Origin: a virus
Direction: 5' to 3' (one strand)
Length of the DNA stretch: 54,320 nucleotides
IMG/VR virus record: IMGVR_UViG_3300031673_000059
Location: 1-54,320 of that record
The translations under genes were made by a program, and so were the position numbers. Positions within the stretch are counted from its first letter, which is position 1. Each line of letters opens with the position of its first letter. This document shows, piece by piece, positions 1 through 37,825 of the stretch. The notes below the pieces were generated by a model. It had not been told where the DNA came from and made no database searches. It worked only from the letters and a program-made list of their open reading frames with translations.

Positions 1-1046
1 CTCAGAGGCCCTCCGTCGCGCTTGGTGGGCTTGTTTTCGGCCCTCTTGAGGTCAGAGACCTGCTCCCGGTCTCCGACTAGCTGGGCCTTCTGACGAGCTC
101 TCTCGGCCTCCAGCTGCTCTTTACTCATGCCCATGGTGTCCTCCTCGGGTAAACCATATGGTGCACCCAGGTCCTCGTTTGGTGCGGCGCGGAACTCACG
201 ATGTTTCTCTTCGGAGTGCTGTGCCTCCGGCGGTTCGGGTGCAGGCCCAAGAGACGCGAGAGGACGTAAGTCCGATCGTGTCCTCAGACCGTTAGGTCTG
301 TCTCCCAATACATCTTCTAGTTCATCTGTACAGGGAAGCAGTGTACTGCCCGAGGGTCGGGCAGTACACTGCCATAGGTCAGGCAGTACACTGCCATAGG
401 TCGGGCAAGACACTGCCATACCTATAGCAGTGTCTTGCCCGAGGGTCGGGCAGTGTACTGCCCGAGGGTCAGGCAGTGTACTGCCCGAGGGTGAGTCGTC
501 CAGACTCGCCATCTCAGGCACTTGCGGCCCAGGACCATCACCCAAAGCATCGCCCAGGCCATCGGCAACGGCGTCATCGGCAACGGCGTCCAAATTCCCG
601 CTCGCCCACCCAGCTGGTCTGCCAGTCCGCTTCGGCCCCTTCCGCTGCTTGAATGATCTCCGCTGAAGCTCTTTGACCCCGCCTGACTCCTCGACGTAGG
701 CGATCGCGTCGACCGCTCTGTTGCTCAGTAGGCGCTCCGGGCAGTTGATGGGCGGAGGCTCTACCAGCGTGTAGACCGGGTATCGCTTGTCGTTATCGCG
801 GTAGCTGATGGAGATCAACCCGAGTCGTTCGAGGTTGCGAAGCGAGTCGAAGATAGTTCGCTCGGCTACCCTGAGCTGTCCAGCCAGGGCACCCTTCGTA
901 AGCCTGCAGACCCTCGGTCCGTCGGTCTTCTTGAGGCAGTAGGACATCAGCAGGGAGTAGAGCCTGAAGTCATGGCTGGTGAGGTCTGGGCAGCGGATGA
1001 TGTCGTCGAAGATCTGTGTGAAGAGGCGATTCTTGTCCTTGCTCAT
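1..1046 (-). CDS. Winged-helix DNA-binding protein, paralog 1 of 3. It is 3'-partial: the frame stays open to the window edge. Its C-terminal part spans the 12-mer repeat array.
   Basis: ATG at 1046..1044 overlaps the TGA of the upstream gene (ATGA). Manual translation: MSKDKNRLFTQIFDDIIRCPDLTSHDFRLYSLLMSYCLKK...RVAERTIFDSLRNLERLGLISISY (wHTH-like). There is no in-frame stop down to position 1. It is absent from the ORF track because it is truncated. Confidence 0.6.
   Translation of the reverse strand, partial: MSKDKNRLFTQIFDDIIRCPDLTSHDFRLYSLLMSYCLKKTDGPRVCRLTKGALAGQLRVAERTIFDSLRNLERLGLISISYRDNDKRYPVYTLVEPPPINCPERLLSNRAVDAIAYVEESGGVKELQRRSFKQRKGPKRTGRPAGWASGNLDAVADDAVADGLGDALGDGPGPQVPEMASLDDSPSGSTLPDPRAVHCPTLGQDTAIGMAVSCPTYGSVLPDLWQCTARPSGSTLLPCTDELEDVLGDRPNGLRTRSDLRPLASLGPAPEPPEAQHSEEKHREFRAAPNEDLGAPYGLPEEDTMGMSKEQLEAERARQKAQLVGDREQVSDLKRAENKPTKRDGGPL
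338..495. repeat. Array of 7 dyad-symmetric 12-mers, GCAGTGTACTGC or its complement GCAGTACACTGC (one variant, GCAAGACACTGC, is paired with its own inverse). Period is 22-23 bp. Candidate iteron or operator array.
   Basis: Read directly. Copies start at 338, 361, 383, 405, 428, 450 and 473. Each 12-mer is internally palindromic (GCAGT-NN-ACTGC). The spacing equals two helical turns. The array lies inside the open frame of the 1..1046 minus-strand ORF. Confidence 0.85.
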
Positions 1047-1369
1047 GCGCCGCCTGCACTAGCAAGCTGTCGAAGGACGCTGTAGCCGTTATCTAGGTGC
1101 AGGAGCTCGATGTTCAGCCACCCAGGCGACCGATGGACGATCTTGATGAGTTCGAGCTCAGAGAGACGGCGGAGCGCCCTGCGGACGGTCGACGCGCTGT
1201 AGTTGGTATCGGCGGCCACGGAGCTCACGCTCCCGCAGTCAACCGGGTTGTGATAGTGGGCCCGGTATTCGGCGGCGATGTAGAGGTAGACGATCTTCTC
1301 GGAGGGCGAGAGATCGGCGTCCCGGATAATCCGGCCAGCTACCTCGGTCATCGTCCTATGCTTAGCCAA
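1043..1369 (-). CDS. Winged-helix DNA-binding protein, paralog 2.
   Basis: LSPSEKIVYLYIAAEY...ASTVRRALRRLSELELI aligns with the same region of the flanking paralogs. GGAG lies 7 nt upstream of the TTG at 1369. An alternative ATG is at 1351. Confidence 0.6.
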   Translation of the reverse strand: MAKHRTMTEVAGRIIRDADLSPSEKIVYLYIAAEYRAHYHNPVDCGSVSSVAADTNYSASTVRRALRRLSELELIKIVHRSPGWLNIELLHLDNGYSVLRQLASAGGA

Positions 1370-1757
1370 CGAACTGCTCCGACGAGCTGTTTAGTCGAAT
1401 CAGTCCAGTGTAAGGACCTCGCCGACTCTCCCGGCTAATGAAGCCTCTCTCCTCTAGCCGCGCGAGCACCTCGCACACGGTTCGCTTCGTAAGCCCCGTG
1501 CGCTCTGCGAGAGTTTCGAGGCCGTCGTCGATCTCCTTCGCGCTCGTGCAGAGGTCCATGAGGACCGCGAAGACGCGGACGTCCGACGACCTCATTGACC
1601 GGTCAGACACAAGCCTTCTCGGTACGCGGAGATAGCCCTGTTCACTTCGTTGCATGTGAACCCTCAAGGAGTGGTTAGTGGTGAACTTGACGCCCCGACC
1701 GGCGCAGAAAGAGTCTAGCTTGACCTGAACGGATTTCAAGTCTTTTCCGGCGCGCAT
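1362..1757 (-). CDS. Winged-helix DNA-binding protein, paralog 3.
   Basis: RSSDVRVFAVLMDLCTSAKEIDDGLETLAERTGLTKRTVCEVLARLEERGFI is a wHTH motif paralogous to the two downstream genes. Confidence 0.6.
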   Translation of the reverse strand: MRAGKDLKSVQVKLDSFCAGRGVKFTTNHSLRVHMQRSEQGYLRVPRRLVSDRSMRSSDVRVFAVLMDLCTSAKEIDDGLETLAERTGLTKRTVCEVLARLEERGFISRESRRGPYTGLIRLNSSSEQFVG

Positions 1758-1787
1758 CGAAACCCCGACCTATCACCTACATAGGTT

Positions 1788-2003
1788 CTACCGGCAGCGC
1801 CAGGCTGCGCGCATGGTCTCTGGACGAACCATGTCGAAGTTCTCTCTGTGTCGCCTTATGCACGGCTCCCTGCGGAGAACACGGAGGCGGGTCGTCCAAC
1901 CGCCACCACGAGCAACATACGCATCAGTGATGCTGTATATGGCGTTCAGGTAAGCCCCACGAACTGGCGGCTCGGCGACGAAGTCGAACGTCATGATCTG
2001 GTA
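1788..2003 (-). CDS. Possible small protein of 71 aa (MTFDFVAEPPVRGAYLNAIYSITDAYVARGGGW...).
   Basis: This is the non-overlapping 3' part of ORF 1788..2516. It has an internal ATG at 2003, GC3 about 69% and no clear SD. Confidence 0.3.
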   Translation of the reverse strand, partial: YQIMTFDFVAEPPVRGAYLNAIYSITDAYVARGGGWTTRLRVLRREPCIRRHRENFDMVRPETMRAAWRCR

Positions 2004-2094
2004 ATCGACAACGCCGCCCTGCTCATCAATCGATCCACGACCGCTTTGAGAGATACCGACGCTCGAACCTTCGTTGAGCGCAGCCCGGAACCGC

Positions 2095-5000
2095 TCAGCG
2101 GCCTCGCCACGCAGCTCGAAGGCCGACGTCATCGTGCTCGCCCACGATTGGGTTCCGGTGACCGGGTTCTGGTTCGACGCAGCACCAGTAGGTGCCTCGG
2201 GCAGCGCGACTCTTACCTCGTCTGCTGATGTTGTCGAGGTAGAAAAGCATTCCGGCTCGGTTGTCGAGTGGTTGAAGAGGGGGCGGCCAGAAGGGGTTGG
2301 AGAGTCCCTGTCTGACGAGGGGTCCTGCGAACCGGAGGAATGCTGAGTCGCTGCCCCCCTCAGCGACGACTCGGTCCATGTGTCGCTGGTGGTTTTCGAG
2401 GAGCATGCCTGTAAGAGCTCTTGTGAAACTGTCGTCGACTCCTTCGAGGAGGGGGGCCCATTTCTGGGTGTAGCGGTTGACGATGCTCTGAAACTCTGGT
2501 GCCTCAGCAGCGGCACCTCCAGGCCGCTCTTGGAGTAACTCCTGCCTCAACCTCGTCATGGTAGCGAGGATCTCTGATGGTTGAATCGGCGGTGTCGCAG
2601 ACCCAGTTGAGTCCTCGGACGACGCGACCGTCGTCCACACCTCGCTCGGGGGTGCCGTCGTCGATGGTGGCGCAGAAGACGTTGAGTCCGAGTAACTCGG
2701 GTCCGGGAGCGCCGCCGACGATCCGGACCCACTCAGAAAATCCGAGTCACCTCGCTCTCCAGGCTGACCTGGGCCCGAGCCAGCAACGATGTTCACCGGC
2801 TCGGATGATCCTGGAGTCGAAGGCCTCTCCATGCTGGTAGGACTGCCAGTTACCTCCTCGGACGGTGCAGGATCCGAACCCCATCTGCTCGATGGCTCGG
2901 TCCATGACGGATCGTAGGTAGATTCGACCGCTGGTGTTCCGGGGGGCGATTCCGAAGGTTCCCTCGACGATGTGTGTGAGTGGTCTTGGGTTGACCATGA
3001 TGGCCGCCGCTTCTGCTCTTGTGATGTTTGGGCCGTAGAGGGCCCTAACCCAAAAGGGACGTCATCGGGCCCTCCATGCCGCCCGTGGACCGGCCGTAAA
3101 GTCGGGGAGTTCGGGATCGAGCCACCAGGAATCGGCCCGATCCCACCCCTGCCAGTCTCCGCCTCTGAGCGTGTAGGCGTCGATCCCGATGTAGTGCGCG
3201 ACTTCGGGCGAGACTCGCATCCAGTTGGCTGGGTTTCTGACGGTGAGCTCGTAGATTCGTTGGGCCGCCGCCGCGACCCTGGCGATAAAGGGAGGTCACC
3301 TTGCTCTCCAGGCGCACCTGAGTCCGACGTCTCTGACGTCGTTTCCGGCACCTCGCTGCCGTCTGGCGACGAAGCCCTCGTCCTCTCCTCTGAGGACCTT
3401 AGGTCGATCCTCGGCGGTGATTGCGATGTAGGGGGCGTAGATGAACCCGGTGTCAAGGACTGTGTCGCCCTTGTAGCCGAAGAGGAACCCCGTCCTGTCT
3501 CCGTCCTGGGACTGGTCAACATGGATGAGGCGGCCGCCGTCTTGGGATGAGAATGGGGGCTCTGGGTGGACCGTCCACCCAGGCCTGATCCGAAACCCGA
3601 GTCACCTCGCTCTCCAGGCCCCTCGGAGTCCGAGTCCGTGGTCGAGGTCCCAGCCCCAGACTCTGCCGGTGTCGAGGCCTGGGTCGGCGAGTTCGAGCCA
3701 GCAGATCCCCCGGACCCTGATCCGGGGCTGGAAGGGTCCGAGCCGACCGGCGTTGCGTCCTCCGCGTAGGGGCCCAACCCCATCCCGAGGTCGGAGTAAG
3801 CGTCCATGTGCTCGTAGTCAGCGTACCGGTCGAGCAGCTGCCCGGAAGGAGACATGAGACTGTCGCTCAAGGACCCCGAGCTGGTCTCGCCATCCTGGAG
3901 ATCCCTCTGGGGGTCGTCCGACATTCCAACTGATGGACTTGAGGATGTATGGGATACCGTCCTGGTAGAAGATGCCTCCGAGGTAGCAGCGTCCGAGTTC
4001 GCCGAGCTCGATCTCGCTGCATGGGTTGACCCCGAAGGCTCCGTAGGGTCCGAGCTAATGAACCCTGGCTCTCCAGGCTGTCCTGACGCCTCCTCGGTCA
4101 ATGTTGTGGCCCCTGAAGGAGGCGCCTCGCTCCCAATCCCGGGGGGACTCATCCCAGGAGTAGCTTCGGATGAGGAATCGATGATGTTGCATGCGCTCTC
4201 GGACGGAGAGGCCTGCGTAGGGTCCGAGCTAGGCTCTCCAGGCTGGTCGGAGTCCTGCGTCCTGGGCCCCTCCGACTGCTCGTCCGATGTTGCTGACGGG
4301 GAACGGATAGGTCCCGCCGTTGAGATGATATGTAGGAGGGAATCCGTAGTCAGGAACGGGGTTGATGTAGGGTCCGGGCGTTGCTCGCCGTTAGCGATGT
4401 AGCCATTCTCGGGCAGGTCCTCGACCCCTCGAACCCACTGGCACCTGGTCCATTCGAAGACGTTCCCGCAGTTGTCGTGGAGCCCCCAGTTGTTCGGATC
4501 CTTCAGGCCAACTGCCTTGTGCCCGTCCTCAAACTCGCCGCCGAACCAGGCGATCTTCTTTAGGTCCTCATCCGTGTCGCCGTTGGGGTAGCGCGTAGTC
4601 GCTCCGGCCTTAGTCGCGTATTCCCACATCGCCTCAGAGGGGAGCTGAAAGCCGACCCGCTCACCCTTCTCGTTCCAGAGCCAGGCCTGGTAGGCCGCCT
4701 CGACCTCTGCTGAGAACACCAGCGCTTGGTTCTGGACAGGCAGAGGCATGATGTCCGTGTTGACCTGTTGCTCCCACTCTCTCCACGTCAGCGTGAAGGT
4801 CTGATCTGAGTGTGTGAACTTGCAGTTGGTCAACCGTGCAAAGTCCAGCCGGTTGATGAAGTCCTCGACCTCACGGCACCGATCCCAGGAGACGCTCTCA
4901 ACAGGGTGCTCCCCCCACCTGCGCCCATCAGAGTCCTTCAACTCCATGCGGGTCGCAGGCCCGAACGGCGCGTCACCCATGCGGGTGACGTTAAGCCCCT

Positions 5001-5400
5001 CCTCGACCATTTCGGTCGTAGGGAAGTGACTCGGGAACTCACGTGTGACGCGGTACCACTCACGCCCGGTCCACGGGTACTTCGCCATCAGGAATGGCTC
5101 GTCGAAGGTCCGCTTGACCTGTTGCTGGGCCGTCTCATCATCAGGGTCCGCAGTGGGACCCATCATGAACTCACCCGAAGGGATCAGAACGAAGATCATC
5201 CCCGTCGTCTTGTGCTGATACTCAGCCAGGCCTTGGGAGTTGAGCCCGAGACACGAGAAGAGCTCAGTCTCCTCTACGCGCAGTCCGTAGGGGACGTCGT
5301 TTCCGGCCCTGCGGATTCGCGTGATGTAGTCGCCGCGATCGGCCGCGTCGCCTGTAGCCTGCCAACGGCGTTCTGCTGCTCTTAAAGCGGCGTCTGACAT
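2095..5400 (-). CDS. Large 1101-aa protein. N-terminal FGE-sulfatase (SUMF1/EgtB-like) domain of about 340 aa, then a roughly 500-aa Ser/Pro/Thr/Gly/Asp-rich low-complexity tract, then an unknown C-terminal domain of about 240 aa.
   Basis: N-terminal motifs MIFVLIPSGEFMMGP...FDEPFLMAKYPWTGREWYRVT and RYPNGDTDED...NNWGLHDNCGNVFEWTRCQW match the FGE family signature (xIPAGxFxMG ... GLyDMsGNVWEW). RBS AGGAGA lies 5 nt before the ATG at 5400. A single stop-free 3.3-kb frame is extremely unlikely by chance. Confidence 0.8.
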   Translation of the reverse strand: MSDAALRAAERRWQATGDAADRGDYITRIRRAGNDVPYGLRVEETELFSCLGLNSQGLAEYQHKTTGMIFVLIPSGEFMMGPTADPDDETAQQQVKRTFDEPFLMAKYPWTGREWYRVTREFPSHFPTTEMVEEGLNVTRMGDAPFGPATRMELKDSDGRRWGEHPVESVSWDRCREVEDFINRLDFARLTNCKFTHSDQTFTLTWREWEQQVNTDIMPLPVQNQALVFSAEVEAAYQAWLWNEKGERVGFQLPSEAMWEYATKAGATTRYPNGDTDEDLKKIAWFGGEFEDGHKAVGLKDPNNWGLHDNCGNVFEWTRCQWVRGVEDLPENGYIANGEQRPDPTSTPFLTTDSLLHIISTAGPIRSPSATSDEQSEGPRTQDSDQPGEPSSDPTQASPSESACNIIDSSSEATPGMSPPGIGSEAPPSGATTLTEEASGQPGEPGFISSDPTEPSGSTHAARSSSANSDAATSEASSTRTVSHTSSSPSVGMSDDPQRDLQDGETSSGSLSDSLMSPSGQLLDRYADYEHMDAYSDLGMGLGPYAEDATPVGSDPSSPGSGSGGSAGSNSPTQASTPAESGAGTSTTDSDSEGPGERGDSGFGSGLGGRSTQSPHSHPKTAAASSMLTSPRTETGRGSSSATRATQSLTPGSSTPPTSQSPPRIDLRSSEERTRASSPDGSEVPETTSETSDSGAPGEQGDLPLSPGSRRRPNESTSSPSETQPTGCESRPKSRTTSGSTPTRSEAETGRGGIGPIPGGSIPNSPTLRPVHGRHGGPDDVPFGLGPSTAQTSQEQKRRPSWSTQDHSHTSSREPSESPPGTPAVESTYDPSWTEPSSRWGSDPAPSEEVTGSPTSMERPSTPGSSEPVNIVAGSGPGQPGERGDSDFLSGSGSSAALPDPSYSDSTSSAPPSTTAPPSEVWTTVASSEDSTGSATPPIQPSEILATMTRLRQELLQERPGGAAAEAPEFQSIVNRYTQKWAPLLEGVDDSFTRALTGMLLENHQRHMDRVVAEGGSDSAFLRFAGPLVRQGLSNPFWPPPLQPLDNRAGMLFYLDNISRRGKSRAARGTYWCCVEPEPGHRNPIVGEHDDVGLRAAWRGR

Positions 5401-5428
5401 AATGATCTCCTGGTCTCTGTTTTACCCA

Positions 5429-6817
5429 TCAGACTCCAAAGAGCGCATGGAAGAAGCTCTTGGGCTGGTAGGCCTTCTTCTCGGGCTGCTTGGGCGTGAC
5501 CTTGACATTGGGCGAACTGGGACCACTCGACGGATCGAGTCGCAGCAGCTCATCACCGCTCATGGGGCCCCGAAGGAAGCTGTAGGCCCACCGGATCTTG
5601 GTCACAGCGTGCTCCCCGCTCTTCTTCAGGATCAGGAAGTGCCGCTGAGGAATCGACGTCAGGGTCGACGTGTCCACGTTCCGGCTGGAAAGCTCCTTCT
5701 TGAGGTCCCGGGCGCAGTCCCGGGGCCGCAGCTTGCCGAGGAACCAAGTGCCGACGTTGGTCAGCGCCTTGTAGTCCATGTCGTTAGGGTTCTGAGTCCC
5801 GATCAGCATACCGATGCCCTGGGCCCGGCCCTGAGCGAGGAGCGTGCAGATCGGCTTCTTGGTCGGCGGGTTGAGCGGGTAGGGCGGGAGGTAGCCCCGC
5901 GCCTCGTCCAAGACGACCAGCAGCTTCAGCTTGTTGCTGGCCGGCGCCCGGAACATGTAGTCCACGATCGCCGACAGCAGCATGCCAGCGAAGAACTGCC
6001 GCTCACCCTCGTCCAGGTGTCGGAGGGAGAACACCGAGACCTTAGGCTTGCCGGTGCCCACGTAGCTCTCGATCGAGAGCGGAGAACCGTCGAGCCACTT
6101 GGTCGCTTGCCGCCGGAAGCCGACGATCGACCGAGCGATCTGCATCCGCTTCTTCTTGGGGAAGAAGTCGTCGAGGCTCAGGCCATCGATCTCCTTCAGA
6201 TTGGCAGGGGGCGTGTTCAGAGCGGCGGACCACGTGTCCAGACCGGCCGCCTGACCCGAGGCCCAGGCGTCGACCATCACGTCCGTCAGGAAGACGTTCG
6301 CGGGGTCGGTCATGGGGTCGGCGGTGTGGCCGATCGCGTTGAGGACTCCGGCGACCAGGGCCGAGGCCCGGTCCCGCAGCGCTTGCTCACTGTAGTTGCC
6401 GGTGGGAGCGTCGAAGGACGCCAGGACGTTGACGGACTGGCCGCCGCCTCGGGTCTTGCCGGGGGCGTAGATCGTGACATCGGCGGCCGACTTCCACCGC
6501 TGGACGTTGGGAGCCAGGTGGCCGAGCTCCTTCCGAGCTCGGTCAGCGATCTCGCCCGGGTCCTTGCCGTCCTCCGCCCAGGGAGCGAATTCGCCGGCGG
6601 CCAGACCGGGGAAGGCCAGGGCCAGATTGGTGAGGTCGCCCTTGGGGTCAATGATGATCGCGGACGCGCCGCTCAGCACGGCCTCTTCGATCGTGGCGAC
6701 GGTGGCGCCGGTCTTGCCGGAGCCGGTCCGACCCAGGACCACGCCGTGGGTGGTAAGGTCGGCGGGGTCGATCGTGAGAGGAGTTCCGTCGTTCTTGGTG
6801 CCGATCAACATGCTCAT
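5429..6817 (-). CDS. HerA/FtsK-like P-loop ATPase (DUF87-type).
   Basis: Walker A GRTGSGKTG and Walker B LLVVLDEA. The start is placed at the internal ATG at 6817 (MSMLIGTK...) because the GGTAGAAA-N5-ATG start-associated motif precedes it. The ORF track begins at 6856. Confidence 0.75.
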   Translation of the reverse strand: MSMLIGTKNDGTPLTIDPADLTTHGVVLGRTGSGKTGATVATIEEAVLSGASAIIIDPKGDLTNLALAFPGLAAGEFAPWAEDGKDPGEIADRARKELGHLAPNVQRWKSAADVTIYAPGKTRGGGQSVNVLASFDAPTGNYSEQALRDRASALVAGVLNAIGHTADPMTDPANVFLTDVMVDAWASGQAAGLDTWSAALNTPPANLKEIDGLSLDDFFPKKKRMQIARSIVGFRRQATKWLDGSPLSIESYVGTGKPKVSVFSLRHLDEGERQFFAGMLLSAIVDYMFRAPASNKLKLLVVLDEARGYLPPYPLNPPTKKPICTLLAQGRAQGIGMLIGTQNPNDMDYKALTNVGTWFLGKLRPRDCARDLKKELSSRNVDTSTLTSIPQRHFLILKKSGEHAVTKIRWAYSFLRGPMSGDELLRLDPSSGPSSPNVKVTPKQPEKKAYQPKSFFHALFGV

Positions 6818-6909
6818 GGTTGTTTCTACCTTTCTTAGCCTTGTGGCTTCAACCACTACGCCGCCCTGCCACGATTCATCGAACTCGGGTATCAGTAAGC
6901 AGGTGACTT

Positions 6910-12987: not shown

Positions 12988-13554
12988 CTAGTTGTCCGCC
13001 GACACGACGTCCGTAGACGCCGTTGCGGTCGCAGCCTCGCTGCCTGCGTAGTAGCGAAGCCCCCTACGCTGACCCTCGGTTCGGATGTCACCGTTCTCCC
13101 GGGCAGAGTTCAGGATCCGACGGATCGTGCCCTGCGGAAGCTTGGTGTGGCCCTCGATGTCGGTCATGTTGCAGCCCTCGTTCTTCCGAACGAAGCCAAT
13201 GATCAGGTCAGGCCTGACCGGCTTTCGCTTGGTCGACTTCGCGACCGCTGGATTGGCCTTGCTGACCTTCTCCTGCCGCGTGGACTGCTTCTTGGTGACC
13301 TTCGGCTTCGAGGTCTTCTTGGTGACCTTCTTGGTGACCTTCGGCTTCGAGGCCTTCTTGGCGGCCGTCTTCTTCTTCTTGGCGGCCGTCTTCTTGGCGG
13401 CCTTCTGAGTGGTCACCCTGGGGGCTACCGCCTCCCCTAGCGCTACCGTCGTGGCCTTGTGGGCCACCCAGGTGTCGCCGACCCTGAAAGGCTTCACGCC
13501 CTGCGCCATCGCTGGCGTGATCGTGAAAACGACCGGTCCGCTCTGATTAGTCAT
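12988..13554 (-). CDS. Histone-H1/HupB-tail-like protein: Lys/Ala/Thr-rich repeats plus a C-terminal winged-helix-like domain.
   Basis: The repeat region reads AKKTAAKKKKTAAKKASKPKVTKKVTKKTSKPKVTKK. The C-terminal part reads GTIRRILNSARENGDIRTEG. GGAGGAAA lies 7 nt upstream of the ATG. Confidence 0.6.
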   Translation of the reverse strand: MTNQSGPVVFTITPAMAQGVKPFRVGDTWVAHKATTVALGEAVAPRVTTQKAAKKTAAKKKKTAAKKASKPKVTKKVTKKTSKPKVTKKQSTRQEKVSKANPAVAKSTKRKPVRPDLIIGFVRKNEGCNMTDIEGHTKLPQGTIRRILNSARENGDIRTEGQRRGLRYYAGSEAATATASTDVVSADN

Positions 13555-14892: not shown

Positions 14893-14983
14893 ACCACGCT
14901 GACTCCGCTTTGCCTAACTCCCGTGAGTCTGATAGCATCATGATCTATACTGATGCAGGGCTTATCAGTCTCAGGGGTGATCG

Positions 14984-16183
14984 ATGTCTGGATTCGCGAC
15001 AGCGGGTACTGGTTCAGAGGGTGTTCTAAACGCCGTTTCGCACTCTGGAATCGACCACACGGGTATTCTCGGGGTCGGATCCGGAGGTGGCGACGCGTTT
15101 CCCATCGGGTGCATGGTCCCCTTTGGGGCCCTTGTCTCCGCCATTCCAGCCGGGTGGCTGGCCTGTGACGGGTCGGAGTATGGGCGTACAGGCGGAGACC
15201 CGAGCCCACAGCCCACGCTGTTTGGAATCATCGGCACCGCCTGGGGCATCGGTGACGGGTCCACTACCTTCAACGTCCCAGATCTCCGACACCGTGGTGT
15301 TGCCGGCATCAACGACGGAACACTACCTGCCGGCCCCGACGGTGGGTTCACCACTCGATCCCTTGGACAGCTCGCCGGCTCCGAGACCCACTCCCACACC
15401 GTCAACAACCACTCCCACACCATCTCGTCAGACGGAGCTCACACCCACACAGGCACTACTGATCCCAACGGTGTCAACATTATTGAGAGCTTGGCACCCA
15501 CTTACCCTGGTAACGACGGCATCAACTCGCGTCACACCCACACGTTCACCACCGGCGGCGCATCTCCTTCGACCCACTCTCACGGCTCGGTCACTGGACA
15601 ATCCAACCCGTCTACCAACGCGCAGCCTGGGTTCGGTCCGACCGCGTTCTGCCCGTTCATCATCAAGGCTGTAGCAGTTGGCGGTGGGGCTGGTGGTATC
15701 TCGAACCAGGTCAACGCAGGTCCTCTCCAGGGACCCCAGCCCACGATCAACTACATCGAAGGCCCCGGGATCTCGATCACGGCGGTGGAGAACATTCCTC
15801 AGAACCGCAACGACGTTACGATCAACGCCACTGGGGCGTTCGCGACACTTCCCTTCGGGTGCACCTTCGTCACTCCGAACAACTACGCAGTCGCCCACGG
15901 CGATGGTGCTCAGACTGAGATTGGATCTCTTACGGTGATCACTCAGACAGCATCACCGATTGCCGGCGGAACGGTCACACTGTCGTGGAACGTCTCTTTC
16001 TCCGGAGGAGATGCTCGCGTGTTCGTGAATGGGGTTGCCGCCGGCACACCGGTCACCCTCTCCACAGCTAACGGCGCTAGTGCGCAAGCGATTGCCGTCG
16101 CGGCCGGGGACAGGATCGCGGTCGAGTATCAGACCGGAACAGCGCCCGGACCTGCTCTCTTTGAGGTACACGTAGGCCCGTAG
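14984..16183 (+). CDS. Tail fibre-like protein with a phage tail-collar domain.
   Basis: PAGWLACDGSEYGRTGGDPSPQPTLFGIIGTAWGIGDGSTTFNVPDLRHRG matches the tail-collar (PF07484-type) signature. The C-terminal region is Gly/Thr-rich and beta-rich. The RBS is GGGGTGATC. Confidence 0.8.
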   Translation: MSGFATAGTGSEGVLNAVSHSGIDHTGILGVGSGGGDAFPIGCMVPFGALVSAIPAGWLACDGSEYGRTGGDPSPQPTLFGIIGTAWGIGDGSTTFNVPDLRHRGVAGINDGTLPAGPDGGFTTRSLGQLAGSETHSHTVNNHSHTISSDGAHTHTGTTDPNGVNIIESLAPTYPGNDGINSRHTHTFTTGGASPSTHSHGSVTGQSNPSTNAQPGFGPTAFCPFIIKAVAVGGGAGGISNQVNAGPLQGPQPTINYIEGPGISITAVENIPQNRNDVTINATGAFATLPFGCTFVTPNNYAVAHGDGAQTEIGSLTVITQTASPIAGGTVTLSWNVSFSGGDARVFVNGVAAGTPVTLSTANGASAQAIAVAAGDRIAVEYQTGTAPGPALFEVHVGP

Positions 16184-16186
16184 GTC

Positions 16187-16636
16187 CTAGTAGTTCTCAA
16201 ACTCGGCGTGGCCCTCATCGATGAGTGTGTCGCCTAGGCTCTTCCAGCCGCCCTCTACCTTGTATAGGCACACAATTAGCCAACGGCCATATTTGCCCTT
16301 GTCGCCGCTCTTGAAGGACCAGACGCGGAGCTTCTGACCGACGCCTAGGAGCTCCTCGGCGCGCTGCTCGGCCAGAGCACCCATCTCCTTCTCCTTGCCC
16401 CGCGTCTCCCAGGCGTCGACGCAGTCGTCGCTCTTGTCGTCTGGGGTCAGGACGGCGCCCTCGGCCAGCAGGCGGCAGTAGGCTCGGACATCGATCTCGA
16501 AGCCGATGTCAATTCGAAGGCGGAAGCTATCGCCGTCGATGACTCCTTCTAGTTTGCCCACATCCGGCACGACCTCAGCCTCTCTCCAGGGTGTATCGAA
16601 AGGCGTCGTCTCTTCGTCGGTCCACAGCTTGCCCAT
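16187..16636 (-). CDS. Thermonuclease (SNase)-like nuclease.
   Basis: VIDGDSFRLRID...RLLAEG...GRWLIVCLYKVEGGWKSLGDTLIDEGHA gives a partial SNase motif pattern. Confidence 0.5.
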   Translation of the reverse strand: MGKLWTDEETTPFDTPWREAEVVPDVGKLEGVIDGDSFRLRIDIGFEIDVRAYCRLLAEGAVLTPDDKSDDCVDAWETRGKEKEMGALAEQRAEELLGVGQKLRVWSFKSGDKGKYGRWLIVCLYKVEGGWKSLGDTLIDEGHAEFENY

Positions 16637-16692
16637 GAGCGGCCTCCAGGTGTCTGTAGGCTACATCATTAGGCGGGTAGGTAGAATAGGGT

Positions 16693-17058
16693 ATGAAGAC
16701 CGGCGCGAGGAAGGCAGTCGTCCGTAAGCTACGGAAGATGGTGAACCGGCATATCGGCAACATGGTCGATGAGAAGTTCGAAATGGGCTGCCTGGCGGCA
16801 AGTCTGTTCCCGGACTGGGTTGAGAGCGACTACTCCACCTTTGATCTTTACCTGTTCCACGGCTGTGGAATCCCATGGAACATCGCCAGTCGCCTGGAGA
16901 CGATGGCTCACACCTACTACGAGATTCCATCTCTTCAGATTTGGATGCAGGTGGGATACACAAGAGCCGCCCAAGCAGCCGGACAAGGCCGAGAGGGCCA
17001 AATCCGAGCGCTGCTTGAAAGCGGCTCTAATGTGCTAGACGTGATGACGTTGATCTAG
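16693..17058 (+). CDS. Hypothetical protein.
   Basis: 121-aa ORF. GGTAGAAT lies 5 nt upstream of the ATG. Confidence 0.55.
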   Translation: MKTGARKAVVRKLRKMVNRHIGNMVDEKFEMGCLAASLFPDWVESDYSTFDLYLFHGCGIPWNIASRLETMAHTYYEIPSLQIWMQVGYTRAAQAAGQGREGQIRALLESGSNVLDVMTLI

Positions 17059-18140
17059 ACGGCGATCGGCGCTTCGGTGCAGACCGTGGTGAGGATCCTG
17101 GTGCAGACCCGGTAGGGGTCGCAGTTGGCTCCGGGTCGCCGATCTTCGATGTAGCCGTAGCCCTGCTGGGCTACCTGGGCGGGGATGCGGATCGAGCAGC
17201 CGCGATCACTGTCACCGACCTTGAACGTGTTGATGTCGCACGTCTCGTGCTTGCCGGTCAGGCGCTTCTCCAGGCCGAAGCCGTAGTCTGCGATGTGCTC
17301 GGCGTGGACCTCCGACATCGCCTTGACCGCCGCCGCGATAGCCGACTTGCCGGTGCCTGGGTCTCGCATCTCCTTCGTGGAGAAGTTTGTGTGAGCGCCC
17401 GCACCGTTCCAGTCGCCTTGCTCAGGCTTGCAGTTGAGGGTGGCCGAGATGCCGTAGTCCTCGCCGATCCGGAACAGGAGCCAACGCGCAAAGATCAGGT
17501 GATCTGCGACTGTGAGAGGGTCGGCTGACTCGCCCGGGAACCCAGGACGATGACCGATCTGGAACTCCCACTGACCCAGCATGACTTCGGCATTGATGCC
17601 GTAGATCATCAGCCCGGCCCTCATGCAGGCGCTGAGGTGATCCTCGACCAGCTTGCGGCCCGCAACCTCGTCAGCTCCGACGCCGCAGTAGTAGGGTCCC
17701 TGAGCGCGCTGCGGGAGTCCCTTCTCCGGCCATCCAAGGGGGCGGCCAGTGTCTAGGTTGTAGAGCGTGTACTCCTGCTCGAAGCCGAACCAGGGATCGT
17801 GGTCCTCAGCGACCGACATGATGTCCCGCAGACGGCTGCGAGTGTTGGTCTTGTGCGGCATGTCGTCTGGAGTGGTGACCTCGCACAGGACCAGGAAGTT
17901 GGCGCCGCCGCGAATCGGGTCGTTGACGACGCGAACCGGGGTGAGCACCTGGTCTGAGTTGGACGTCCCCGCCTGATTGGTCGACGAGCCGTCGAAACCC
18001 CAGACCGGAAAGGACGTGTAGTCGATGACGCCCTTCTGATCATCGGGTAGATAGACCACACGGGTCTTCGACCGAAGGTTCTGGACAGGGATGTCGGCGG
18101 ATCCGCCGTCCATCCAGATGTATTCAGCTCGTACGTGCAT
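17055..18140 (-). CDS. glnII: Glutamine synthetase type II (eukaryote-like GSII).
   Basis: EYIWMDGGS N-terminus, GPYYCGVG, NAEVMLGQWEFQIG, DWNGAGAHTNFST and CSIRIP are hallmark GSII motifs. Length is 361 aa. RBS AGGAAGGG. Confidence 0.85.
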   Translation of the reverse strand: MHVRAEYIWMDGGSADIPVQNLRSKTRVVYLPDDQKGVIDYTSFPVWGFDGSSTNQAGTSNSDQVLTPVRVVNDPIRGGANFLVLCEVTTPDDMPHKTNTRSRLRDIMSVAEDHDPWFGFEQEYTLYNLDTGRPLGWPEKGLPQRAQGPYYCGVGADEVAGRKLVEDHLSACMRAGLMIYGINAEVMLGQWEFQIGHRPGFPGESADPLTVADHLIFARWLLFRIGEDYGISATLNCKPEQGDWNGAGAHTNFSTKEMRDPGTGKSAIAAAVKAMSEVHAEHIADYGFGLEKRLTGKHETCDINTFKVGDSDRGCSIRIPAQVAQQGYGYIEDRRPGANCDPYRVCTRILTTVCTEAPIAV

Positions 18141-33840: not shown

Positions 33841-34806
33841 CTAGTAGGGCGTTCCGGCCAACGTGATCAGAGATGCGAACTCCGGCCTCACGAGTGTGAT
33901 TTTGTGCCGGGTGCGGATCGCGCGCCGAAGAGTCTTGTCGGCCGGATCTACGAAGTTCGGTGTGATCTCGACCATGGTGTAAGGACTGTAGATGACGCAC
34001 GTATCCATTACGCTGTCGTCTGCCTGATACCAGGCCAGCAGCTTCCCTACGGGGAAGAGGGGATCCAGGTAGACGCCCCTGCCGTCAACCTCGCCGATTT
34101 TGGCGATGCCGTCTGCCTCTTGGACGTCAAAGCCAAGCTGGGCCAGCATCGCCGCGTTGCCAATGACCCTGTTTGCCGGGTTCCGCTGAGACCCCCGATG
34201 GACGATGTGGGCCGCCCTGTCCAGAGCTTCTTTGAGATCACCGCCGGCGGCCAACTCGATCTTGTTGTTGTCCAGGACGCCGTTCAGGATCGTTCCTACG
34301 ATCTCCCGAGCCACCTCGGTCAGGAGTGCGTCGATGTTCAGAGCCCCCTCTTCGTTGACGTCGGTGTGTGCCTTGCAGCGCCTCGACTCCGCTCGGATCT
34401 CTTGAGGGATGATGTCCAGCACGACGGAAGGCACCTTGACCTTCCTCTCGACGCCGTCTTGAATCAGGGTCGCCTCCTCCATCTCCCCGAAGCGCGGCTT
34501 GTAGTAGTAGACGATCCCGATCGGCCCAGTCATCGGCTGCACCGCGCAGAGGTCCGGGAGCACGTGGGTCCGGACCGAGGCCTTGAGGTTATCGAAGAGA
34601 TCCTCCGTCCACGAGCCGAGGACCAATGCCCGGGTCTCCTCGACGAGACGCTGAAGGTGTCTGCTCTGGTTCTCGCAGACCATGGCAGCGATGTTCGACC
34701 TGTAGCCGTCCTCTAGGCCCCACTTGGTGCGGAGCTTCTCTAGATAGCTCTCGTCCGGCATACCATCAAGCTGAGTCATAGTTCCTCCTGATGCGGAGGG
34801 TACCAC
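33841..34806 (-). CDS. T4 gp24-like capsid vertex protein (paralog of 34825..35778).
   Basis: KLRTKWGL...AMVCENQ, VQPMTGPIGIV, NPANRVIGNAAMLAQLG and YLDPLFP...VIYSPY match conserved T4 gp23/gp24 blocks (KW..L.G...A.I..FENQ; CGVQPM..P.G; N.I..S.N....L; Y.D....YYAPY). Confidence 0.6.
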   Translation of the reverse strand: MVPSASGGTMTQLDGMPDESYLEKLRTKWGLEDGYRSNIAAMVCENQSRHLQRLVEETRALVLGSWTEDLFDNLKASVRTHVLPDLCAVQPMTGPIGIVYYYKPRFGEMEEATLIQDGVERKVKVPSVVLDIIPQEIRAESRRCKAHTDVNEEGALNIDALLTEVAREIVGTILNGVLDNNKIELAAGGDLKEALDRAAHIVHRGSQRNPANRVIGNAAMLAQLGFDVQEADGIAKIGEVDGRGVYLDPLFPVGKLLAWYQADDSVMDTCVIYSPYTMVEITPNFVDPADKTLRRAIRTRHKITLVRPEFASLITLAGTPY

Positions 34807-34824
34807 AACTACATCAGATTTACA

Positions 34825-35778
34825 TCAGACAATCTGCGCCAACCGCTCCAGGACGTTGACCTTAACCACCTGGATGTGGCTCGGATGGGCCACATGGATG
34901 TTGTGGTTCAGGTAGATCGCGAAGTTGTGGCGGCCGTCCATCGGATCGAGCGGGTAGCAGAAGGGCGAGTAGACGACCGGCGTGTCTACGATGCTTGGTC
35001 CCATGTACCAGAGCATTACTTCACCGTCAGGGAACAGCGGATCCAGGTAGACGTGCATCCTCTGCTTGTAGACGCCTACCTTCTTCACCAGGCCGGTATC
35101 AGTCGTGTCCCACTCGTCCGGATCCTCCGGCGAGAAAAGCTCCAACATCTTCTCATTGCCGATCACGTGATTGGCCGGGCCCCGCATGCAGCGCTTGTGG
35201 ACCATCTGCGAGGCGCGAAGGATATCAGTGTCGAACGCGGTGTAGGTCGACTCCAACACATTGCCGGCGGCCGATCCCGCGCCGTGCATGACGCCCAACA
35301 CCTCGCGGATGGACGCCAGCATGACCGAGTCGAACACGCTGTCGATGAGCGCGAAGTTTCCTGGGTAGATCCTGACGCCGAGTCGCCTGATGGAGGCTTG
35401 GACGTTGACCGTCTGCAGGTTCAACGTCATCGTCGGGATCGATGTGCTCCCAGGAGTAGTGGGTCCGGCCGGCGTGGTGATGTTGGTTTGGCCGTAGAAG
35501 CCGATGGTGTCTGATGGCCTCCGTAGGGGCTGGACCGACACCATGTCGATCAGGGGGCAGTGCACCCAGGCCTTCACGAGAGCTCGGTAGAACTTGTCCT
35601 TCCAGTTGTCGCCATAGGTCTCTTCCAGATCATCGGGGATCAGCGATGAGCAAAGGACGTTGGCCTGGTTCTCCAACAGTAGAGCGATGACGCCAGAGCG
35701 CTTGTGATGGCCGGGGAGGTAACCCTCCCACTTCTCGGTCAGAGCCTTGATGTGGTCGTTGTCCAACATGGTGGGCAT
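34825..35778 (-). CDS. T4 gp23-like major capsid protein (short form).
   Basis: LTEKWEGYL...ALLLENQ, VQPLRRPSDTIGFYG, GPANHVIGNEKML and YLDPLFPDGEVMLWY...VVYSPF. Paralog of the adjacent gene. Confidence 0.6.
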   Translation of the reverse strand: MPTMLDNDHIKALTEKWEGYLPGHHKRSGVIALLLENQANVLCSSLIPDDLEETYGDNWKDKFYRALVKAWVHCPLIDMVSVQPLRRPSDTIGFYGQTNITTPAGPTTPGSTSIPTMTLNLQTVNVQASIRRLGVRIYPGNFALIDSVFDSVMLASIREVLGVMHGAGSAAGNVLESTYTAFDTDILRASQMVHKRCMRGPANHVIGNEKMLELFSPEDPDEWDTTDTGLVKKVGVYKQRMHVYLDPLFPDGEVMLWYMGPSIVDTPVVYSPFCYPLDPMDGRHNFAIYLNHNIHVAHPSHIQVVKVNVLERLAQIV

Positions 35779-37221: not shown

Positions 37222-37506
37222 TTACTCCTCGATGGCGCCCAGGATGTCGAGCACGGTGCCGTTGATGTTGGTGTCTAGCGTCTGCAGTCGCTGTGGACTG
37301 AGGATCCTGATCCGCCCCGTCTTGAGGTTGAGGGCCGCTCGAACATCGCATGTTCCTCGGCAGCAAGAGAGCAGAGCGAATGTCGTCTCCAGTGAACCGG
37401 CCTCTCCTCCAACGCCGTCCTGCGTAAGGAGCTGACCATCGATGGGGCACCGCTGCTGCATGAGCCGAGCGATACGGTCGTGCTTGGCCTGCTTGGCCTT
37501 ACTCAT
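37222..37506 (-). CDS. Hypothetical protein.
   Basis: 94-aa ORF. Confidence 0.5.
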   Translation of the reverse strand: MSKAKQAKHDRIARLMQQRCPIDGQLLTQDGVGGEAGSLETTFALLSCCRGTCDVRAALNLKTGRIRILSPQRLQTLDTNINGTVLDILGAIEE

Positions 37507-37825
37507 CGATCAACCGCTCGCCGTTCTCGTCGACGAACTCACACGTGGAGTAGGCGGCGGCCGTCATGTCGGCGTGTCGCACCCACCAGACGTCCCCGCC
37601 GTGGCCTCCCACCCAGGAGCCGAGCTCCCCCCAGGCTCCAGGTCGTCGAGCTTCGATGTGCTTCTCCGCGATTAGGAAGCCCCCAGTCCCATGGAGGGGG
37701 GCAACCGTCCTGACGAGCTTCCGGCCGCTGGCTCGGCACCGAGCTCGGACCAACCTCTCGGCCGCGTCCTCGGTGCCCTGCTCCATGAAGGCTCGTTCGA
37801 GCTCTCGTAGTTGAGCGTCGCTCAT
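37499..37825 (-). CDS. Hypothetical protein.
   Basis: 108-aa ORF. Confidence 0.5.
   Translation of the reverse strand: MSDAQLRELERAFMEQGTEDAAERLVRARCRASGRKLVRTVAPLHGTGGFLIAEKHIEARRPGAWGELGSWVGGHGGDVWWVRHADMTAAAYSTCEFVDENGERLIDE

Follow-up and report, generated by a model that had tools for sequence, protein, structure and literature searches.

Shufflons and invertible tail-fibre segments, such as R64 pilV, the G segment of Mu, the C segment of P1 and Min of p15B, work through a recombinase that inverts DNA site-specifically, with cassettes oriented both ways. At the Borrelia vlsE and Neisseria pilE/pilS loci, head-to-tail cassettes that have neither promoters nor start codons and are nearly free of stop codons stand beside an expressed copy. 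Among the variable proteins of diversity-generating retroelements (DGRs), those of the Treponema TvpA class bind ligands non-catalytically through a C-type-lectin fold of the formylglycine-generating enzyme (FGE) type (PMC5758913). At the level of translation, mouse mammary tumor virus (MMTV) and human T-cell leukemia virus (HTLV) use two successive -1 ribosomal shifts, while some mitochondrial genes require 10-12 shifts for one product (PMC5009743). Here, we describe a giant gene on the minus strand of a viral DNA of 54,320 nucleotides, positions 1 to 54,320 of IMG/VR record IMGVR_UViG_3300031673_000059 (hereafter, the window), in which an FGE-like core is followed by an array of cassettes lying in the -1 frame.

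An incomplete FGE domain and two coding layers

The original prediction, made from the DNA letters alone, had described a single frame of 1101 codons, and this frame is a real open reading frame (ORF; 2095..5400, minus strand; 1101 codons plus stop) composed of an FGE core, a read-through "backbone" and a terminal domain. A helical N-terminus of 45 residues (5266-5400) precedes the FGE-sulfatase core, which occupies residues ~46-345 (4366..5265, minus strand). The predicted FGE similarity was upheld in profile searches, with Pfam FGE-sulfatase PF03781 matched over residues 70-336 at E=2.8e-19 and 70.2 bits (cutoff 23.3). Between relatives, the core shows ratios of nonsynonymous to synonymous substitution rates (omega) of 0.04-0.11, with substitutions at frame-0 position 3. 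The frame-0 match covers only positions 5-207 of the 255 in the Pfam profile, the last ~48 being absent from the core, and a hidden Markov model of canonical FGE domains stops in frame 0 at position 209 of 269. The FGE domain is not complete within one contiguous reading frame. A kinship between the N-terminal helical domain and the ORF at 37499-37825 was also considered and rejected (BLASTP E=0.72).

Beyond the core lies the predicted Ser/Pro/Thr/Gly/Asp-rich tract, which is present but spans ~600 residues rather than ~500 (residues 346-945; S+T+P+G 57%, hydrophobic residues 12%, net charge -45) and to which AlphaFold assigns a predicted local distance difference test score (pLDDT) of ~30 without secondary structure, in agreement with the expected disorder. 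It had been interpreted as a mucin-like linker, an interpretation that fails because the tract evolves almost neutrally as a protein (omega 0.6-2.4) and the information, including the codon signature, resides in the -1 frame. The biased composition is there; constraint on the frame-0 sequence itself is absent, and its openness alone is selected. Such a composition is the expected output of out-of-frame reading of coding DNA rich in G and C at third codon positions (GC3), and nothing in the analysis supports the surface exposure that had been derived from the linker.

The hidden layer was found with a profile built from the C-terminal 150 residues of the relatives, which in each giant gene matched alternative-frame segments within the "linker". 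GC content at codon positions 1/2/3 is ~0.60/0.45/0.80 in the FGE core, and across the tract the peak shifts from frame-0 position 3 to position 2, corresponding to position 3 of the -1 frame. Stop codons in the -1 frame number 19 in codons 1-337 and only 8 in codons 338-965, and each of these 8 directly follows a tail of the G[LVF]R..WR.R type. When the -1 proteins of six loci were kept and synonymous codons were resampled, frame 0 was expected to hold 7-22 stops across the array and holds 0 (P≤0.001 in each), which makes the ORF far longer than chance; when the frame-0 protein was kept instead, 16-50 stops were expected in the -1 frame, and the junction stops alone are present. Both frames are held open by selection in six related loci.

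Substitutions in the array fall mostly at frame-0 position 2, omega(-1) being 0.18-0.62 against an omega(0) of 0.6-2.4, and the protein sequences of orthologous cassettes are conserved even where the phages have cores with no more than 35-40% identity; a residue-by-residue comparison of one orthologous cassette, which gave identities of 0.33 and 0.28 in the two frames, does not discriminate between them. The gene carries two coding layers. A sequencing frameshift splitting the ORF had been named as a possible refutation, and on this point the architecture, found again in eight independent assemblies, is not a sequencing error, but the gene is indeed built around reading-frame changes.

Eight cassettes, their junctions and the terminal domains

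The -1 frame of ~1.9 kb consists of eight contiguous head-to-tail cassettes (C1 to C8) with one stop codon each, in which a variable insert is followed by an FGE closing segment. The first segment begins where the Pfam FGE match ends, and the segments read like ordinary protein, most of them with an RGGxW-type motif 26-31 residues ahead of the tail. A start codon (ATG, GTG or TTG) occurs within the first 12 codons in 4 of 55 cassettes, start codons representing 0.9% of codons overall.

On the minus strand, C1 (4232..4390; 53 codons ending in ..GLRPAWRA and TAG) would be entered at a candidate slip site, G GAC CCT, at codon 343 (4369..4375), and the same motif is found at 4225-4219 for C2 (4058..4228), at 4051-4045 for C3 (3821..4054), whose tail ..FRAAARPVR is atypical, and at 3739-3733 for C4 (3605..3817), where a conserved frame-0 island, DRYADYEHMD..GPYAEDA (~3736-3843), precedes it. 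C5 (3299..3601; G GGT TTC at 3598-3592) joins a capsid-protein fragment to an FGE closer, and C6 (3065..3295; C CCT TTA at 3292-3286) joins a capsid-like fragment to the closer ..LRGGDW..GPRAAWRAR. C7 (2750..3061; C CCT TTT at 3058-3052) closes with ..VRGGNW..GPRSAWRAR, and C8 (2507..2746; G GAT TTT at 2743-2737), which is orthologous in all loci, is the most FGE-like (VRGLNWVCDTADSTIRDP..).

The closers of C5-C8 add 4.2-13.5 bits to the Pfam FGE match (4.4 for C6, 6.1 for C7 and 13.5 for C8), that of C5 taking it to position 254 of 255, and reversed controls add none. When the tails of 55 cassettes were pooled, HHalign placed them on the final ~40 columns of contiguous, canonical FGE domains (87%, E=4e-6). 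The alternative that the tail is a capsid strand of the LRRAIRTR-like kind was rejected, with HHalign giving 0.3% for capsid vs 87% for FGE, and some cassettes hold the LRRAIRTR-like capsid motif and the FGE tail motif as separate parts. In the related locus L009, the cassettes are 48-51 residues long and without inserts (for example, RVGRGGSWSYTASFCRQADR..FGFRPAWR). Its core alone scores 108.7 bits over profile positions 5-205, and the core with its frame-0 continuation scores 108.4 bits over 5-206, while each of the four predicted -1 products extends to 254/255, with scores of 116.9-126.4 bits (+8 to +18 bits). To judge from these profile matches, the missing part of the FGE domain appears to be supplied by the -1 cassettes (all four in L009, C5-C8 in the window) or by the far C-terminal tail.

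True FGEs of the SUMF1 type have two catalytic cysteines (C-x4-C) after a GGS[YW] motif. A check for this pair, which the original prediction had proposed, found it absent from all window cassettes and from the terminal tail, C8 keeping the first Cys only, which indicates a non-catalytic FGE-fold module of the kind that prediction had allowed for. The curated families nearest to the core are the non-catalytic PvdO and GldK, both below cutoff. In the relatives L001 and L005, the last internal cassette, orthologous to C8 of the window, reads SWQCDTGDC, with a C-x4-C pair at the catalytic-cysteine position, and one frameshift product in some relatives may be catalytic.

Inserts in many cassettes are fragments of gp23-type capsid proteins that span 25-70 residues and match several profile regions (E 4e-13 to 1e-3), including those of C5 (capsid profile E=1.4e-7; Pfam Gp23 E=0.009) and C6 (capsid profile E=1.7e-4); frame-0 controls gave one marginal hit. 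The in-frame terminal domain, type A (2098..2538, minus strand), which has no preceding slip site, is a copy of the gp23-type capsid N-terminal region followed by the FGE tail ..GLRAAWRGR. It had been described as unrelated, and is in fact homologous to that capsid region (HHalign 99.4%, E=2e-21, columns 7-125 of 373 only); a search of the PDB matched it to T4 gp23 alone, at residues 8-62, and its tail takes the Pfam FGE match to 254/255 (+4.6 bits). Type A and the capsid-like cassette inserts are capsid-derived pieces, not complete HK97-type capsid proteins (PF07068).

The window also encodes two adjacent short gp23-type capsid paralogs, one of 317 residues and one of 312 or 321 (33841..35778, minus strand; Pfam Gp23), which match the capsid profile at E=8e-109 and 6e-77 and are related to the sequences mimicked in the cassettes, the capsid fragments there resembling a class of ~475 residues more than these paralogs. 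The short paralogs are without the insertion domain of the 475-residue class, and no recognisable portal or protease genes flank them. The same pair is found in a 358.7-kb contig (L007 9160-10948).

A second conserved domain, type B (type-B profile E=3.5e-40), forms with an FGE-like tail, ..MRAAWRCR, the end of a +1-frame open stretch of 252 codons (1788..2546, minus strand). Its frame stays open for ~250 codons across type A and overlaps the end of the giant ORF, with a candidate Met start at 2135, and the same arrangement recurs in L001 (7807-8562), L008 and L024 (11566-11892). An identification of type B with the C-terminus of the T4 gp21 prohead protease was dropped, as it had no PDB hit and matched neither the FGE nor the capsid profiles.

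The cassettes meet at conserved junction DNA, GCCTGGAGAGCGAGG TGA CTCGGATTT, in repeats of ~42 nt that are 74-81% identical. A -1 slip motif in the frame-0 phase is found at 46 of the 49 internal junctions, and at 8/8 window cassettes, nearly always three codons past the -1 stop of the preceding cassette, and each site opens a -1 ORF of 40-116 codons. By class, these 46 are 19 of the canonical X XXY YYZ form, 17 G GAT TTN, which resembles the MMTV pro-pol site, and 10 G GAC CCT. Counted by themselves, canonical heptamers are present at 21 of 61 junctions, where 2.6% would be expected; these enrichment statistics are inflated because the junctions are related by common descent. Junctions preceding the in-frame terminal domain have a motif in only one of six loci. 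Pyrimidine runs at the junctions (GGATTTT, CCCTTTT) comprise 3-7 identical bases, and only three at the G GAC CCT sites. Programmed -1 sites can be stimulated by a structure that follows them after a 5-9 nt spacer or by a Shine-Dalgarno (SD)-like sequence ahead of them. Here, an SD-like element, GGAGAG..GAGG, is found 6-13 nt ahead of the slip sites, the genes of this phage using SD sites. The signs of downstream RNA structure are mixed; the 60 nt that follow show greater stability than controls (z -1.32 vs -0.27, P=7e-4), and a hairpin lies ~6 nt downstream at 6 of the 8 window sites.

Probable serial frameshifting and its rivals

The architecture is shared by five other loci with 5 to 17 cassettes and also by L008/L024, L009 and L023, the number of cassettes ranging from 2 to 17 among relatives. 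L023, on a 358.7-kb contig, provides an independent test of the slip-site rule. Stops close its frame 0 ahead of the terminal domains, and both domains are intact. Of nine slip motifs found there in any phase, seven are placed as a staircase of consecutive -1 shifts would demand: three open onto cassettes and a tandem pair onto a -1 continuation of 153 codons, one is phased for the new frame and leads toward the type-B domain, and one is phased for the third frame and leads to the type-A domain. This correctly phased three-step staircase is the only route to the intact terminal domains. Over the 3.6 kb of this gene (L023 9667-13284), a gene caller had given small fragments only, although the stretch contains a full FGE core along with four cassettes and the two terminal domains.

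We consider it probable, from the arrangement of motifs and frames, that nine nested proteins are made from this gene through programmed -1 frameshifting at one site after another (serial frameshifting). At each junction, some ribosomes would slip by -1, read one cassette and terminate, so that one mRNA would give products of 390, 448, 527, 599, 701, 779, 884 and 965 residues, ending in C1 to C8 respectively, together with the 1101-residue read-through product. All would share the FGE core and differ in the segment closing the fold, the Ser/Pro/Thr "linker" being the harmless frame-0 translation of skipped cassettes. The products would be non-catalytic binding modules displaying segments of capsid protein, and their likely targets are capsid proteins or the factors recognising these, a suggestion to which we attach low confidence. 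More tentatively, and short of calling it probable, we propose that the gene may be a translational diversity generator, in which one phage mRNA would constitute a library of closing modules of the FGE/C-type-lectin fold, each showing a different capsid fragment, with the ribosome choosing among them through serial and, in some phages, nested three-level -1 frameshifting. The products could be decoys or binders for capsid recognisers, for instance partners in assembly, rival phages or host immunity that senses capsids. Such a generator would match, in hard-wired form and at the ribosome, what DGRs and shufflons achieve with DNA.

Several results weigh against serial frameshifting. Among the slip motifs, 27 of 46 are non-canonical and their P-site re-pairing is imperfect, a property also documented at natural frameshift sites (PMC5009743). 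All junctions copy a single repeat unit, and the presence of the motif partly tracks repeat homology. Across the family, downstream hairpins are positioned no differently from those of controls (8/46 vs 54/230), and neither a slip route to the +1-frame type-B ORF in the window nor an expression route for its counterparts in L001, L008 and L024 was found. The closers of C1-C4 are not recognised by Pfam FGE and add essentially no bits, and Pfam applied to the core joined to full window cassettes gives no extension, so that no bridging is seen. AlphaFold models neither the frame-0 protein with a closed fold, its tail being undocked, nor the C1 frameshift product, in which residues 318-390 have pLDDT 25-37 from a 13-sequence alignment and do not close it. 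On the evolutionary side, omega(-1) is only moderately below 1 and equals omega(0) between L005 and L006 (0.62 vs 0.61), and the array DNA that can be aligned has diverged less than the core has, with synonymous divergence (dS) of ~0.2-0.3 vs 1.0-1.5 among L001, L005 and L006, which could reflect cassette exchange between phages or constraint at the RNA level.

Low divergence of this kind is also what suggests exchange in a silent-cassette archive, in which the frame-0 protein alone would be made and the -1 cassettes would be donors for gene conversion into the terminal closing segment, in the manner of vlsE or pilS antigenic variation, and held out of frame so that their stops stay unread. 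An archive accounts for selection on both frames, for cassettes without start codons and for the variation in their number from 2 to 17, and the conserved junction repeats (D5 family) could serve as recombination flanks. Yet those repeats are short and imperfect, none of the window cassettes contains an equivalent of the terminal insert, which is a capsid N-terminal region, and neither the phase-correct motifs at 46/49 junctions, absent before the in-frame domain, nor the staircase of L023 with frame 0 closed before its terminal domains is explained; we regard an archive as unlikely. Slippage at the DNA level or during transcription would let T/C runs gain or lose a base and bring a cassette into frame in sub-populations, as in phase variation. 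The junctions do have runs of identical pyrimidines, and transcriptional slippage gives alternative C-termini in bacteria, although productive slippage needs runs of ~9 A or T (PMC5009743), where those here have 3-7 bases and the G GAC CCT sites have three. A two-codon phased X XXY YYZ motif is, moreover, a ribosomal signature irrelevant to a polymerase, and the same frame relationships recur in eight independent assemblies, leaving slippage very unlikely in our estimate.

Closest to the view of the original prediction stands the explanation that the cassettes are evolutionary debris, namely relic C-termini of repeated 3' duplications, with a functional read-through protein and the tract as its spacer. 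The full-length ORF kept in 13 relatives, the predicted disorder of the tract and the failure of AlphaFold to close the fold with a cassette all fit this explanation, which we nevertheless rate as less likely even than slippage. Relics would gain stops, but the -1 frame has none outside the junctions where 16-50 are expected; orthologous cassettes are conserved as proteins where the cores have diverged to 35-40% identity, omega(-1) lies below omega(0) in most comparisons, and the amino-acid sequence of the supposed spacer is itself near-neutral, while in L023 the read-through ORF is broken and the domains are intact. The least probable reading, which we hold to be remote, is that each cassette is an independent small protein, initiated internally through GGAG/GAGG and complementing the truncated core in trans. 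An SD-like element does lie directly upstream of each cassette, and the type-B ORF may use this route, gene callers having placed small ORFs there in L006 and L024; however, start codons within the first 12 codons of only 4/55 cassettes do not fit, and the required openness of frame 0 is left unexplained. Each rival falls short because it leaves at least one of the phased motifs, the two-frame openness or L023 unaccounted for.

Gene neighbourhood and comparison with known systems

The giant protein differs by one residue from a database protein, and its 13 relatives, which come from metagenomes only, range from 636 to 1733 residues, with no relative found among 185,579 cellular genomes. The window holds phage genes for a tail collar protein, a ligase, helicases and the two capsid paralogs. 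Since close relatives of its capsid paralogs and of its ATPase are found on contigs of 358-401 kb, it is likely to be part of a jumbo phage genome. This ATPase, a P-loop protein of the HerA/FtsK superfamily with 475 residues (5429..6856, minus strand), lies 28 nt upstream of the giant gene and is co-oriented with it, as predicted. Its motifs GRTGSGKT (Walker A) and LLVVLDEA (Walker B) can be read in the sequence, and Pfam DUF87 (34.8 bits), HerA_C (28.1 bits) and TrwB exceed their cutoffs, in addition to matches with PADLOC mad8 (E=4e-17), PDB HerA 8wiv (E=4e-8) and PDB HerA chains in general (E=4e-8 to 3e-3). It falls under all NCBIfam HerA/FtsK/TraD/VirB4 equivalog cutoffs, with a best score of 32 bits vs cutoffs of 250-970, and is therefore a distant superfamily member from which no specific function can be transferred. 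The ATPase is 70-83% identical in relatives. A comparison of related genomes found the ATPase-FGE pair kept in seven further loci, within a conserved order of ATPase, giant gene, winged helix-turn-helix (wHTH) genes, DnaB, primase and RecA, and the HerA-like ATPase appears to be a conserved partner of the giant gene. A role in DNA pumping or translocation, which had been read from the pairing, finds no support in the analysis.

Two of the three wHTH genes predicted downstream were verified, and the third ORF (3..1046) is without a family match. Inside that ORF, positions 338-490 hold dense direct and inverted repeats of ~22 bp (GGTCGGGCAGTACACTGCCATA and variants), an array that, beside replication-initiator-like wHTH genes, could be an iteron-type origin; searches for known RNA families at 348-451 gave only sub-threshold microRNA-like noise. 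In related phages, LAGLIDADG homing endonuclease inteins interrupt the DnaB helicase (L006 12104-14734; L024), and in L024 the DnaB helicase and a DEAD-box helicase are both intein-interrupted (14893-17520 and 1-3270). Elsewhere in the window, an ORF of more than 965 residues that runs off the end (51425-54319, plus strand) matches Pfam MVP_shoulder (E=1.6e-22) and Vault_3 (E=1.5e-4), a major-vault-protein shoulder domain being unusual in a phage. A glutamine-synthetase-like ORF (17055-18140, minus strand; Gln-synt_C E=3.7e-12) is a possible auxiliary metabolic gene, and an ORF of very high GC3 (0.85; 12988-13554, minus strand) contains tandem CTTCTTGGTGACCTTCGG repeats at 13288-13413 that on the minus strand would encode a Lys/Ala/Thr-rich repeat protein.

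A literature search found no description of a similar frameshift-accessed cassette array. If serial frameshifting is correct, one gene would have 8-17 productive frameshift sites with a different product at each and up to three nested shifts, where the productive sites of known recoding cases number one or two, or the sites are many but corrective, and two frames are jointly constrained over 2-4 kb, far beyond typical overprinted genes. Such a gene would add a third route to diversity beside DGR mutagenesis, by which phages vary the binding end of a C-lectin/FGE-fold protein, and DNA inversion, by which they vary the ends of other proteins, with the ribosome as the only enzyme needed. The capsid fragments in its inserts hint at an interaction, so far unexplored, with the assembly or the sensing of capsids. 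For annotation, a long Ser/Pro/Thr/Gly-rich "disordered linker" in a GC-rich phage ORF can reflect coding sequence that lies in another frame, and genes of this kind are likely missed or mis-annotated, gene callers seeing the read-through product only or, as in L023, nothing at all.

DGR proteins of the FGE type have the same fold and the same varying C-terminal segment of ~45 residues as the proteins described here (PMC5758913). A DGR was considered for this locus and rejected, with no template/variable repeat pair differing at adenines in the 54-kb window and no reverse transcriptase among the ORFs scanned, which were not every ORF. Unlike the DGR variants, those of the giant gene are hard-coded in cis and, under serial frameshifting, would be chosen at translation and not by mutagenic retrohoming, from a repertoire of 9-18 variants compared with 10^13 or more in DGRs. 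As in shufflons, a constant N-terminal part would be joined to one of several adjacent C-terminal cassettes, but the cassettes here are all direct, have no flanking inverted repeats and would be chosen by the ribosome. The layout of the array also resembles that of vlsE and pilS, from which it differs in lying inside an expressed ORF, in the -1 frame, with a slip site per junction.

The closest parallels are found in programmed -1 frameshifting, as in Escherichia coli dnaX, retroviral gag-pro-pol and the phage tail chaperone G/GT, which likewise relies on zero-frame sites of the X XXY YYZ type and in which the new frame supplies an alternative C-terminal region; dnaX in addition has an upstream SD-like element, as do the window junctions. 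The mitochondrial multi-shift genes share with the giant gene many recoding sites per coding sequence, yet their shifts are corrective and obligatory, whereas those proposed here would be exits to different products. Relative to known -1 frameshifting, the giant gene would stand apart in having eight tandem sites in one gene, and up to ~17 in relatives, each leading to a different ending rather than to one extension, in a frame 0 that is dual-coded over ~1.9 kb here and 2-4 kb in relatives, and, in L023, in three sequential shifts that would form a decision tree.

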